Positions 1,148-29,332 of a DNA stretch of 64,000 nt are shown piece after piece. The DNA lies in sequence record PX915677.1, one strand, 5' to 3'. Both the position numbers and the translations under genes were made by a program. Positions within the stretch are counted from its first letter, which is position 1; each line of letters begins with the position of its first letter. Origin of the DNA: a phage. The notes beneath the pieces are model-generated. The model made no database searches. It saw only the letters and a program-made list of their open reading frames with translations, and had not been told where the DNA came from.

Positions 1148-1660
1148 ATGGCAATGCCAGATTTCAGAGGGGCTTTTACATATAACCCAAATACAGGGCA
1201 TCTTTTCTGGTCTATGAGTAACGTATTCAATAAACAGAAAGGGAAACGTGCTGGATGTATTAATAATAAAGGATATCGTGTATTAACCTTCAAGAAGAAA
1301 TCATACCTAGAGCATAAGGTCATAGCTGAACTCTTTCTTCCTAAAGTAGAAGGGAAGGATTATGTCAACCATAAGAATGGAATAAAAGACGATAACAGGA
1401 TTGAGAATCTAGAGTGGTGTACTCAACAAGAAAACTGTACACATGCTTTTGAAACAGGCCTCTCAACACCTAGGAGTCTTGAGGATAACCCTAATTCCAA
1501 ACTCACTAAAGAGCAAGTTCTCTTTTGTTTGGAGAACTACAAACCGAGAGATAGAGAGTTTGGAGCTAGAGCCTTAGCTAGAAAGTTTGGGGTCTCTAAA
1601 AGCACAATATCTCTCATTACTAAAGGCGTAAACTGGAAGGAGGTTTATTATGATGCCTGA
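1148..1660 (+). CDS. HNH homing endonuclease
   Basis: HNH motif ...DYVNHKNGIKDDNRIENLEW...; C-terminal HTH-like region; SD aaggagg; overlaps next gene by 11 nt as expected for an inserted free-standing HEG. Confidence 0.75.
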   Translation: MAMPDFRGAFTYNPNTGHLFWSMSNVFNKQKGKRAGCINNKGYRVLTFKKKSYLEHKVIAELFLPKVEGKDYVNHKNGIKDDNRIENLEWCTQQENCTHAFETGLSTPRSLEDNPNSKLTKEQVLFCLENYKPRDREFGARALARKFGVSKSTISLITKGVNWKEVYYDA

Positions 1661-7016: not shown

Positions 7017-7235
7017 ATGAAAATGATGAAACAAGCTGCATATGGTTTAATATGTTTAGGCGCAGGTGTTGTGGTATCCACCGCAGTTCCTGTAGGCGCA
7101 GTTCATCCATTAGTAACTGTCCCTGCTCCAGTAGAGAAGCTTAGCTCTCAATGCAAGCAGAGAACAATTCAAAATAACTTAGTTGTTATTTGCCCTGATG
7201 CTGAATCTAACGCTCTGAGAAAGATACTACCTTAA
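7017..7235 (+). CDS. small membrane/secreted protein adjacent to endolysin (holin or lysis accessory candidate)
   Basis: 72 aa, N-terminal hydrophobic segment AAYGLICLGAGVVVSTAVPVGAV; SD taggag; directly upstream of the lysozyme gene. Confidence 0.35.
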   Translation: MKMMKQAAYGLICLGAGVVVSTAVPVGAVHPLVTVPAPVEKLSSQCKQRTIQNNLVVICPDAESNALRKILP

Positions 7236-7264: not shown

Positions 7265-7756
7265 ATGGATAACGTCGCATTGCCACCTGTACAACTAAAC
7301 TTAAGCCCAGCTGGAATGGAATTCATCATGAAGCATGAGGGTATGAGAACAAAGGCTTATAAAGATTCCGCAGGTATCTGGACTATATGTGTAGGGGCTA
7401 CGCGCGATATGAATGGTTATCCGGTTAGACAAGGATTAACGTATTCTATAGAGGATTGTCTAGCTCTGCTAGATAGAGACACACAAGACTCTGTTCGTGC
7501 TACTCAGAAGAACATAAAGGTTCCTTTACTGGTTCATGAGTTTGATGCACTCACTTCTTTCAACTTCAATGTTGGCAGTGGGGCTTTAAGCACATCTAAG
7601 TTAAGGAAGGTAATCAATGGAGATGTTAAGGGGGATGTTTATTCCGAATTTCTTCGTTGGGATAAAATAACGGTCAAGGGAGAGAAGCAGAGAAGTCAGG
7701 GTCTTCATAATAGAAGAGTTGCAGAAGCTAATCTTTACACCGAAGGTAAATATTAA
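7265..7756 (+). CDS. endolysin, phage lysozyme (GH24-like)
   Basis: ...FIMKHEGMRTKAYKDSAGIWTICVGAT... with the Glu/Asp/Thr catalytic pattern of T4/P22-type lysozymes; SD aaaggagg. Confidence 0.8.
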   Translation: MDNVALPPVQLNLSPAGMEFIMKHEGMRTKAYKDSAGIWTICVGATRDMNGYPVRQGLTYSIEDCLALLDRDTQDSVRATQKNIKVPLLVHEFDALTSFNFNVGSGALSTSKLRKVINGDVKGDVYSEFLRWDKITVKGEKQRSQGLHNRRVAEANLYTEGKY

Positions 7757-25995: not shown

Positions 25996-27487
<1,492 letters not shown>

Positions 27488-27488
<1 letters not shown>

Positions 27489-27787
27489 TATTCTATTCCA
27501 CGCTCTTTAAGAGCTTCTAACAATCCGTTGTGATTAGCAGCACATTCTGTGTACTGGTCCTGATACCACTCCAACGTAGTGGCTAGTGCTTTTCCTTGAG
27601 CACTCTCTAAAAGAGGTAGGTCAACCCTACATTCAGCTTTTAGGTTTGTTGGTAAGGGCATTGATTGCCTGCTGTTGTCGCTCGTTGAACAAGCTGATAA
27701 ACTAAAAGCTAGCAAAATCCCCGTACAACTCAATAGCTTTTTCTTTATATGCACACCTAGCTCCTTCCAGTGTATCATGAAAACCAA
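27488..27787 (-). CDS. lipoprotein (o-spanin candidate)
   Basis: Signal peptide KKKLLSCTGILLAFSLSAC with lipobox LSAC; short Cys/Pro-containing mature part. Confidence 0.4.
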
Positions 27788-28160
27788 GCCAAATAACCTT
27801 ATCCTCGAATCCTATTCGAGCAGTCCATTTGTTAACATCCTTCCTATACCCGACACCTTTTATGCCTGTTATAGAATTCTTCTGAGCAGATGTATTCATC
27901 TGATTCTGCGCATTGGTTGCTTTTCTTAGGTTAGTCCAAGAGTTGTTAGATTTAATCTGATCTTTGTGGTCAATATCAGTATCAGGGATTTCCCCTGTTT
28001 TTAAATACCAAGCCACTCTGTGCGCTTTATGCGCTTTTCCATTAAATCTAATAATAATGTATCCAGCATCTATCAAACAACCGGCTTCTTTTCCAGCAAA
28101 CCTAGAGTTCCATTGATTGCTCTTCTTTTCAGAGCTTCTCCATGTTAGCTTTCCTGACAC
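27702..28160 (-). CDS. HNH homing endonuclease with AP2-type DNA-binding domain
   Basis: HRVAWYLKTGEIPDTDIDHKDQIKSNNSWTNLR HNH_3-like motif plus GVGYRKDVNKWTARIGFEDKVIWLGFHDTLEGARCAYKEKA AP2-like domain. Confidence 0.7.
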   Translation of the reverse strand: MSGKLTWRSSEKKSNQWNSRFAGKEAGCLIDAGYIIIRFNGKAHKAHRVAWYLKTGEIPDTDIDHKDQIKSNNSWTNLRKATNAQNQMNTSAQKNSITGIKGVGYRKDVNKWTARIGFEDKVIWLGFHDTLEGARCAYKEKAIELYGDFASF

Positions 28161-28183
28161 TTCATCATAGGATAAAAACTCTT

Positions 28184-28528
28184 CTATTCCTTCGATTTTA
28201 AAACCCTCTCAGCTTCTTTCTGTCTCTGGTTAAATAGAGAGACATACTCATCACTAGCGCAGACATTATAAAAAACTGGTTTAGTTTTCTCATAATGCAT
28301 CTCTTTATAAATGGTTTCCGTGTTCTTCTTCCAGTTAGATAAACCGGTAAGAACCCTCTGAGCAACTTCATCAGCTGCTCTATTTCTTTCAATCTCTAAC
28401 TCTTGTTGATGTTTCTCTTTGTCCAGATTACTGCTGTCTGTTTGATATTCGTTAAACTTCATACCACCAAAGAATACAAGAGCTGAGAAAACGATAAACC
28501 CTAAGTTATCACTTAATGTGTTTTGCAT
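28184..28528 (-). CDS. membrane-anchored coiled-coil protein (i-spanin candidate)
   Basis: N-terminal TM LGFIVFSALVFFGG then charged helical domain; start moved to ATG 28528 because the listed start lies inside the upstream terminator. Confidence 0.35.
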   Translation of the reverse strand: MQNTLSDNLGFIVFSALVFFGGMKFNEYQTDSSNLDKEKHQQELEIERNRAADEVAQRVLTGLSNWKKNTETIYKEMHYEKTKPVFYNVCASDEYVSLFNQRQKEAERVLKSKE

Positions 28529-28540
28529 GTTGTCTCCAAC

Positions 28541-28564
28541 GAAAAAAGCCACCCGGAGGTGGCT
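28541..28564 (-). terminator. rho-independent terminator (minus strand)
   Basis: agccacc-loop-ggtggct stem with U-tract on the minus strand (A6 on plus 28541-46). Confidence 0.6.
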
Positions 28565-28585
28565 AAGCTATAACAAGGAGAGTTA

Positions 28586-29332
28586 TTAGAATGGGCTATC
28601 GTTGTCGTCTTCGTAAGTAGAAGCAGGCTCTTTATCAATCGTAGGGATTGAAGGAGTAGCTTCTTTCTGCTCTGTTTCAGAAGCACGAGTAATTTCACGA
28701 CCAGCCAGAGGCATGTTCTTAGCGTCATTAGCTTGAGTAAGCAGGTTGCGCTGGAACGGGAACATCAGTTGATAGGATGCTACGTTCTCATCGGTTTCCG
28801 CATACGGTTCGAAGAATACCAGAGGACTACGAGCTTCACCAACTGCTGCACGATATTTGGTTGGGATTGGAGAAATGGTCTTGATGGAGTTTTTAACTTC
28901 ACCAGCTTTGTTAGTGTAAGAGTTAACCAGAATGTTAACAGGCTGACCTAACAGAACATCCTTGAACCAAGACAGATCACCTTTCAGTGCTTGAATGCTT
29001 GGGTCAATCATCTTGCAAAGATCAAGAATACCAGAGTTCTTAGCTCGTGGGTTTACATCATAGCTCTTGAACTGGCAAGCCGGACGTGGTTCTAATGCCT
29101 TACCATCGGAATCTTTACCAGTAGCATCAACACCAATCAGCTCGAAAGCCAAATCCATACGGAAAGCCGGATTCTTAGGAGTTACTGCTTTGGTCTTCGG
29201 GTCAATCCAAGGGTCACGATTGTGAACACCCAAACCTACTACACGAACGATACGAGCTTCGTATTCACCATCAGGGATTACATCGTAGTTGGATTTACGA
29301 GAAGAAGTTGCGATAGTTGGAATCATAGACAT
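28586..29332 (-). CDS. putative ssDNA-binding protein
   Basis: 248 aa with acidic C-terminal tail ...YEDDNDSPF ending in Phe as in SSB/gp2.5-type proteins; promoter motif upstream and terminator downstream. Confidence 0.45.
   Translation of the reverse strand: MSMIPTIATSSRKSNYDVIPDGEYEARIVRVVGLGVHNRDPWIDPKTKAVTPKNPAFRMDLAFELIGVDATGKDSDGKALEPRPACQFKSYDVNPRAKNSGILDLCKMIDPSIQALKGDLSWFKDVLLGQPVNILVNSYTNKAGEVKNSIKTISPIPTKYRAAVGEARSPLVFFEPYAETDENVASYQLMFPFQRNLLTQANDAKNMPLAGREITRASETEQKEATPSIPTIDKEPASTYEDDNDSPF

Follow-up and report, generated by a model that had tools for sequence, protein, structure and literature searches.

Free-standing homing endonuclease genes (HEGs) are known to split phage genes without introns, as mobE does in the nrdA gene of Aeh1 and as seen in the intronless homing of the T4 seg and mob genes. 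HNH endonucleases also occur in phage group I introns, including those of the SPO1 and SP82 DNA polymerase genes. For two-component spanins, Kongari et al. 2018 (PMC6139136) described homologous pairs in two architectures: the T5 genes overlap by 70 bp, and those of Shivani and phiR201 lie ~700 bp apart with a GIY-YIG homing endonuclease. Between T5 and Shivani/phiR201, differences in the i-spanins are limited to the extreme C-terminus and those in the o-spanins to the signal sequence, and the authors pointed out that the new N-terminus resulting from any such event has to encode a lipoylation signal as before; a transition between the overlapped and separated states was raised and its direction left open (PMC6139136). 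The two-component spanin families in that study include phiEco32, with an i-spanin family 'JH2' and an o-spanin group NJ01/ECBP2/KBNP1711/phiEco32 (PMC6139136). Here, we analyze a spanin locus interrupted by an HNH/AP2 endonuclease gene in a 64,000-nt stretch of phage DNA, sequence record PX915677.1 (the window, meaning the whole stretch; all coordinates are in its numbering unless a locus extract is named). We consider it roughly 80% probable that a free-standing HNH/AP2 cassette turned an overlapped Kuravirus two-component spanin pair into a separated pair, with no RNA splicing required. The spanin function of both proteins is assigned here on homology and topology.

The locus is matched by 99 phage records, 93 of which are Escherichia phages, phiEco32 among them, and the spanin region is 95-99% identical to phiEco32-like coliphages (megablast). 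Judging from these matches, the window is a phiEco32-like Kuravirus (Gordonclarkvirinae). KM01 is the only megablast record spanning the whole query, and the remaining matches are ~545 bp short. The HEG-free comparison alleles were those of phiEco32, Paul, SU10, and Ec3-ASingh, with 101114UKE3 representing the Suseptimavirus type. In the first four, the i-spanin and o-spanin genes overlap, with 116 nt common to two frames. In Paul, the flanking genes carry i-spanin and o-spanin annotations backed by TMpred and LipoP and overlap by 116 nt, and the phiEco32 and SU10 homologue is labelled 'Rz-like spanin' in RefSeq.

A four-way alignment shows a single clean 545-bp insertion in the window and KM01, between ...GATGAGTATG and TCAGCTTGTTCAACG. 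The inserted DNA, a mobile cassette missing in the HEG-free relatives, lies at approximately 27698..28242 on the minus strand, as do all other features of the locus, and its boundaries are ambiguous by no more than 2 nt because of a shared TC. The insertion point falls inside the dual-coding segment, between the o-spanin M-S-M and S-A-C codons and two codons before the lipidated Cys. As a result, the spanin genes, overlapped in the HEG-free relatives, are separated by 429 nt in the window (i-spanin stop 28184 to o-spanin GTG 27754), and each overlaps the endonuclease frame instead. Both remain open only because the insert supplies an i-spanin tail with its stop and an o-spanin ribosome-binding site, start, and signal. 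The first-pass annotation had proposed a spanin pair split by a mobile element, and the comparison with HEG-free relatives, which differ by one 545-bp insertion containing the HNH gene, supports HEG invasion of the spanin locus. One refinement is that the ancestral genes overlapped by 116 nt and were not just adjacent.

The cassette was found in eight genomes as two variants that are ~70% identical in DNA (~66% in protein), with site, length, and layout alike in all. Type A comprises the window, KM01, E20-1, and EK010 (94-98% identity), and type B comprises SU7, PAS59, Bas86, and Bas87 (~70% DNA identity to type A). The i-spanin stop and the Cys codon are 492 nt apart in each of the eight genomes.

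The i-spanin gene (28184..28528, minus strand) encodes 114 aa from an ATG start, and the earlier description of an i-spanin-like open reading frame (ORF) with a transmembrane segment at this position was correct. The protein matches PHROG 1152 'Rz-like spanin' (E=4e-35), its N-terminal hydrophobic segment reaches a maximum at residues 9-23, and its AlphaFold model (single-sequence, mean predicted local distance difference test score 68.6) is all-helical (H3-25, H36-76, H83-90, H93-112). Hydrophobicity, model, and PHROG match thus agree on an N-terminal transmembrane helix followed by a largely helical periplasmic domain. Aligned to Paul, SU10, and phiEco32, residues up to 96 are the same except for one or two substitutions. 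From there, the i-spanin frame runs on through the first 57 nt of the insert, which hold 18 codons resembling the ancestral tail and then a stop. This replacement tail (28184..28242, minus strand) reads (V)SLFNQRQKEAERVLKSKE followed by TAG, in place of the ancestral (V)SLFNERQQQAINALTNKPKS. The type-B tail, (V)GLFNERQQQAAEALKLKN-stop, is equal in length, and the stop position is the same in both types. When the cassette tails are compared with the ancestral tail, synonymous sites are saturated (proportion of synonymous differences, pS, ~1), and the corresponding non-synonymous value (pN) is 0.09-0.27 over the first 12 codons; between window and EK010, a K..E to E..K charge swap occurs three residues apart. 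This substitution pattern shows, as far as sequence comparison goes, purifying selection on the i-spanin tail, and the cassette tail appears to be a protein-level homologue of the ancestral i-spanin tail, as a translated, diverged duplicate of the target would look. Import of the tail from Felixounavirus was considered and rejected: the momo tail (VRVFNEQSEQYIQKLPSK) is less like the cassette tails than the Gordonclarkvirinae tail is, and local duplication is therefore preferred.

At the other end of the insert, the lipoprotein ORF with lipobox L-S-A-C that had been reported at 27488..27787 is present on the minus strand, with a TTG start and 99 aa. GTG 27754, with an AAGGAG 6 nt ahead of it, is the more likely start than TTG 27787. 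The o-spanin gene predicted on this basis (27488..27754, minus strand) would encode an 88-aa precursor and a 67-aa mature lipoprotein starting CSTSDNS; it matches PHROG 2425 (1e-25), and the mature protein is identical to the annotated o-spanin of Paul. An overlap of 86 nt between the HNH and lipoprotein genes, as first reported, holds for the maximal TTG ORF but not for the likelier GTG start, for which it is 53 nt. These 53 nt (27702..27754) are read twice, as o-spanin signal and as the C-terminal codons of the endonuclease (...CAYKEKAIELYGDFASF-stop).

The new o-spanin start and lipoprotein signal extend over 27689..27766 (minus strand), with AAGGAG at 27761..27766, GTG at 27752..27754, and the Cys codon at 27689..27691. 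Within the insert, the final ~69 nt (27698..27766) hold the AAGGAG, the GTG, and a basic-then-hydrophobic peptide of 19 residues, MHIKKKLLSCTGILLAFSL, which runs in frame into the host S-A-C and thereby regenerates the lipobox. The precursor, MHIKKKLLSCTGILLAFSLSAC followed by STSD, passes a PROSITE-style lipoprotein rule with Cys at position 22. Its +2 residue is Ser, so there is no Lol-avoidance Asp, in keeping with an o-spanin lipoprotein, and LipoP support is on record for the Paul orthologue. As a lipobox, the L-S-A-C of type A is no less canonical than the M-S-A-C that preceded it. The alternative-frame signal of type B, MLTKKKQKSCLVIFLASSLMAC, has ATG where type A has GTG and also passes the lipoprotein rule; indeed, the SU7 GenBank record already annotates an O-spanin with a ribosome-binding site, beginning inside the HNH gene. 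For comparison, endonucleases of 41% identity at non-spanin loci (n=3: S147, HY02, Panisse) have 3' ends with stops in both alternative frames.

The start that the o-spanin would have used before the insertion can still be read. ATG 28293, inside the i-spanin gene, opens the o-spanin MRKLNQFFIMSALVMSMSAC... in HEG-free phages. In the window, this remnant (28198..28293, minus strand) has been severed from the lipobox Cys by the insertion, and MRKLNQFFIMSALVMSM now leads into SLYLTRDRKKLRGF and a stop; in type B, the remnant stops directly after ...VMSM. The orphaned start keeps its original ribosome-binding context, and the 31-aa hydrophobic peptide MRKLNQFFIMSALVMSMSLYLTRDRKKLRGF could be made as a by-product. 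In type B, the junction creates a stop that leaves 17 aa of the corresponding peptide.

Several further observations concern the o-spanin gene. In the predicted RNA fold, the o-spanin Shine-Dalgarno/GTG region GGAGCUAGG pairs with downstream GCUAGCUUU, a stretch that includes the endonuclease stop (27700..27770, minus strand), and if the model is right this pairing could restrict o-spanin translation. In most public records, the o-spanin is replaced by a 57-aa internal ORF beginning at the Met of ...RQSMPLP (locus extracts L004 1989..2162, which is phi32_38, L001 1989..2162, L007 2081..2254, and L006 1973..2146). The KM01 product names seem to be displaced by one gene, with 'Appr-1-p processing enzyme' sitting on the 57-aa fragment. 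The 9-mer GGAATAGAA, repeated at both spanin gene ends, was entertained as a target duplication and dropped, as ~2 such repeats are expected by chance per 1 kb.

These gene ends could also be read as damage. Under that explanation, the insertion impaired the spanins, for example through a non-cognate i-spanin tail or through poor o-spanin translation or lipidation, the defect was tolerated under laboratory plating, and the open frames reflect recency and not selection. In favor of such tolerance, lambda phages with mutated spanins still lyse their hosts when no divalent cations are added. In addition, acquisition by the window was recent, its flanks being nearly identical to those of a HEG-free phage, and a signal-like peptide survives 7-9% of synonymous recodings. 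The cassette itself, however, is old: across eight phages of independent isolation, variants that have diverged by ~30% in DNA keep both gene ends intact, with length and register unchanged. With the tail under purifying selection and a type-A L-S-A-C no less canonical than the ancestral M-S-A-C, we regard damage as an unlikely explanation, although the one that fares best among the alternatives to adaptive gene ends supplied by the cassette.

Between the two gene ends lies the endonuclease gene itself, and the first-pass annotation had its position right (27702..28160, minus strand; 152 aa from GTG 28160). Of the two domains named there, HNH_3 is above threshold in Pfam (57.8 bits, cut-off 24.8) and AP2 is below (27.4 bits, cut-off 33.3). 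The protein further matches PHROG 99 'HNH endonuclease' (3.6e-57) and contains an HNH motif, DHKDQIKSNNSWTNLRKATNAQN, as befits an HNH domain. Its frame is open from 28208, upstream of GTG 28160, and in tblastn with a query beginning at 28184, homologues align from residue 1-2, again upstream of GTG 28160. The region in which the start has to be sought is 28160..28208 of the window (minus strand) and 1400..1550 of locus extract L005. The type-A GTG/ATG is 24 nt past the i-spanin stop, and an Ile codon after a purine-rich run is common to both types (ATC 28194..28196 in the window, ATT in type B). The endonuclease may be translated at a low level via coupling or a non-AUG start, or the type-B gene may be decaying. 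Nuclease translation may be linked to that of the i-spanin, through termination-reinitiation at the GTG/ATG or through a non-AUG Ile start. A U_UUA_AAA heptamer occurs in the i-spanin frame of type A (~28197..28203) and would shift -1 into the nuclease frame; a frameshift fusion of i-spanin and endonuclease was nevertheless set aside, since the heptamer is absent from type B and is thus probably there by chance.

HNH endonucleases in phages are also found within group I introns, and the 545-bp element could in principle be a self-splicing, group I-like intron carrying an HNH gene, so that splicing restores the ancestral mRNA and the tail and signal within the insert are incidental. The Bas86 and Bas87 BASEL records present the Rz-like spanin as a two-piece joined coding sequence (CDS) around the HNH gene, in line with such an intron. 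The frame of the ancestral i-spanin tail is also intact downstream of the insert, although this stretch is o-spanin coding sequence as well, which accounts for its integrity. A folding z-score of -2.2 can be cited on the same side, a value that is otherwise unremarkable and uninformative either way. Against splicing, a scan of 27300..28800 with Rfam 15 gave no match to any group I or group II intron family even at E<=10, and no catalytic core was found. The endonuclease-frame ORF fills ~504-522 of the 545 nt, and the ~25-40 nt outside it leave no room for a P3-P9 core. No choice of boundary yields both a U at the 5' exon end and a G at the intron end in either cassette variant, the available exon-end/intron-end pairs being G/A, T/T, or C/C in type A and T/A or G/G in type B. 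Moreover, the 5' end of the insert acts as i-spanin coding sequence, with synonymous saturation, low non-synonymous change, and a kept stop position, and its 3' end keeps a start codon, n-region, h-region, and in-frame lipobox junction across ~30% DNA divergence. On the strength of the Rfam scan, splice-site rules, ORF occupancy, and coding-constraint tests, the intron was rejected as unlikely, and we give it very little credence.

The distribution of the cassette fits that of a mobile element. It is present in ~9 of the 99-153 records matching the locus, and an IMG/VR scan with the i-spanin gave only 5 loci, of which the 3 scorable ones are HEG-free and all 5 have lengths fitting the HEG-free state. 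Its presence and absence are sporadic in two genera, with HEG-free alleles in both Kuravirus and Suseptimavirus backbones, so that a presence/absence polymorphism at one precise, conserved site exists in both. The cassette phages were isolated independently in Japan, China, Sweden, and Switzerland. HEG-free phage 101114UKE3 shares 98.8% identity with SU7 over the flanks, and its locus is exactly 545 nt shorter. The insertion site lies in the best-conserved 30 nt of the locus, where the HEG-free alleles of Kuravirus and Suseptimavirus agree at 30/30 positions. Such conservation is expected where two frames constrain the DNA, and homing sites typically show it.

Two mosaic genomes and the flanks of the window itself point to horizontal spread. 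EK010 and E20-1 are SU7-like (93-99%, Suseptimavirus backbone) upstream of ~28400 and downstream of ~26750, and window-like (90-99%) from ~28300 to ~26800, a patch of ~1.5 kb that includes the cassette and the whole o-spanin. From its sequence, this patch looks like recombination or co-conversion, the pattern of a cassette spreading horizontally together with its flanks. The window flanks carry the single-nucleotide polymorphism (SNP) haplotype of HEG-free Ec3-ASingh, and not that of KM01, to within 13 nt (27684) and 71 nt (28312) of the cassette. By its SNP haplotype, the window is a clean case of cassette gain in, or loss from, an otherwise identical background.

That the separated arrangement with its endonuclease is ancestral for the subfamily, and that the overlap arose by precise cassette loss, is scarcely credible: Kongari et al. 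left the T5/Shivani direction open and both states are present in both genera, but Felixounavirus spanins, which belong to the same family, are overlapped with the same embedded start (MKRLSQ...; in momo, a Felixounavirus, MKRLSQSFIMFVLLIIMSGC) and have no cassette there, the genomes carrying the HEG (HEG+) retain the now-useless ancestral o-spanin start and signal codons, ~90% of the matching records are HEG-free, and a 116-nt dual-coding overlap could not be recreated by simple deletion. The Felixounavirus overlap and the orphaned start in HEG+ genomes together make it far more likely that the cassette entered an overlapped ancestor than that it was lost from a separated one.

If a free-standing cassette did separate the spanin genes, the likely sequence of events is as follows. 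The endonuclease would cut the intact, doubly constrained HEG-free site during co-infection, and repair would copy in the whole cassette, including its pre-adapted gene ends, so that homing would be phenotypically silent. Both the i-spanin and the lipoprotein o-spanin would still be made and, once holin and endolysin have acted, would span the periplasm and disrupt the outer membrane, like lambda Rz/Rz1. The cassette tail would have begun as a duplicate of the i-spanin tail of the target and then diverged at synonymous sites, a divergence that would also remove direct-repeat homology and, probably, the cleavage site. A more specific proposal, whose chances we judge to be about even, is that the mobile unit is a co-adapted 'self-repairing' cassette that lets a free-standing HEG occupy a two-gene overlap without an intron or intein. 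Such a unit would have a diverged duplicate of the i-spanin tail at one end and an overprinted lipoprotein signal at the other, each end of the nuclease frame being shared with a different host gene.

Several points weigh against the conversion of the spanin pair by a free-standing cassette. When the last 30 endonuclease codons are randomly recoded with synonymous codons, 7-9% of the recodings still give a rule-passing lipoprotein signal, so codon choice alone is weak evidence for selection on the overprinted signal. The tail substitution analysis spans only 12-19 codons, and the eight genomes amount to just two diverged lineages, so that the conservation among them counts as about one independent, if deep, comparison. 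No start of the endonuclease is convincing: in type A, the GTG (ATG in EK010) has no Shine-Dalgarno sequence and lies within a conserved motif, and a start-codon survey across the cassettes found no canonical start in type B. Expression of the endonuclease may accordingly be poor, or the gene may be decaying. For Bas86 and Bas87, the annotators opted for a joined, intron-like i-spanin CDS, and the RNA of the region folds somewhat better than shuffled sequences (z = -2.2). A literature search turned up neither expression data nor lysis data for HEG+ phages of the group.

With regard to the remainder of the lysis genes, the first-pass annotation had placed the endolysin 20 kb away and considered lysis functions dispersed, and this is what we find: the holin (7017..7235, plus strand; PHROG 11161 'holin', 2.8e-50) and the endolysin (7265..7756, plus strand; PHROG 7 'endolysin', 4e-46) are ~20.4 kb from the spanins and on the opposite strand. 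In a published Kuravirus genome, holin/endolysin and o-spanin are likewise ~19 kb apart on opposite strands, and the 20-kb distance is for this reason not, as judged from gene order, a result of cassette invasion. The holin-PHROG protein of the window has a single N-terminal hydrophobic segment. A Kuravirus study (PMC13417854) describes a holin homologue with a signal peptide only and no transmembrane domain, and calls the endolysin signal-anchor-release (SAR)-type. The holin assignment in the Kuravirus group may deserve a second look.

Other features of the neighborhood are as follows. A terminator-like hairpin (28547..28564, minus strand) lies immediately upstream of the i-spanin ribosome-binding site, and its equivalent in Paul is annotated as a terminator. 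In some relatives, a second HNH endonuclease, encoded by a different gene, is found just upstream of the i-spanin terminator and after a 248-aa gene (SU10 locus extract L003 2543..2956; also CHD5UKE1, FH3, 1-6af, WFI101126, and Ptacy1532); it is absent from the window. This second HNH site near the spanins suggests that the spanin neighborhood is a homing endonuclease hotspot. The gene downstream of the o-spanin varies, being a macro-domain gene in the window (27048..27488), a 339-nt 'NrdA-like' ORF in EK010, and a 225-nt ORF in SU7.

In practical terms, HEG+ members of the group should be annotated with two separate spanin CDSs, the o-spanin starting inside the endonuclease gene. Public records are mostly wrong in this respect, with either the truncated 57-aa ORF (phiEco32, SU10, KM01, EK010) or an i-spanin joined across the insert (Bas86, Bas87). 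The spanin/HEG arrangement is not discussed in the SU7 paper, the BASEL 2025 paper, or two Kuravirus papers. More broadly, the locus would be a natural example of a selfish nuclease invading overlapping genes at no cost to its host phage, and of a spanin pair passing from an overlapped to a separated architecture, with two cassette variants and HEG-free alleles in both genera making the direction and mechanics of the transition inferable. It also offers an HNH nuclease with a candidate target (containing GATGAGTATGTCAGCTTGTTCAACGAGCGAC), together with naturally chimeric spanin tails and signals that could serve structure-function work. If the mobile unit is indeed a self-repairing cassette, dual-coding overlaps would be attractive homing sites, as they are the most conserved DNA available, and the Gordonclarkvirinae and T5 cases would be convergent examples of one strategy.

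Compared with known systems, the window shares with phiEco32, Paul, and other Kuravirus phages with overlapped spanins the same proteins, genomic position, and distance from holin and endolysin; it differs in its replaced i-spanin C-terminus (18 residues) and o-spanin signal (19 residues) and in the loss of the mutual overlap. HNH nucleases of the SPO1 and SP82 introns likewise interrupt a phage gene that is essential or conserved, and do so where its sequence is highly conserved, whereas here there is no intron core, no canonical splice nucleotides, and no Rfam match, and the ends of the insert code in the frames of the host genes. With mobE and the seg/mob genes, the window shares a free-standing nuclease gene within coding sequence, two expressible pieces, and, probably, spread by cleavage of the empty allele with co-conversion of the flanks. 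In the Aeh1 nrdA case, a single gene is split into two subunits, whereas the unit interrupted here is a dual-coding overlap of two genes, for which reason the cassette must supply both a C-terminus and an N-terminal export signal. The T5/Shivani case offers the same homologous pairs in both architectures, with a HEG between the genes and no changes beyond those in the C-terminus of the i-spanin and the signal of the o-spanin. The present case differs in that it concerns Gordonclarkvirinae podophages, an HNH_3/AP2 and not a GIY-YIG endonuclease, and a smaller insert (545 bp). Relative to the published description of T5/Shivani, the insertion point is here resolved to the lipobox codons, the signal is located in the second frame of the nuclease gene, the tail is recognized as a diverged duplicate, and the direction of gain and the mobility of the cassette are backed by mosaic and flank-SNP evidence. 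The kind of event is therefore already known and this is no new kind of system; what this case adds is the exact insertion site, the origin of the tail as a duplicate, the overprinting of the signal, and support for mobility.

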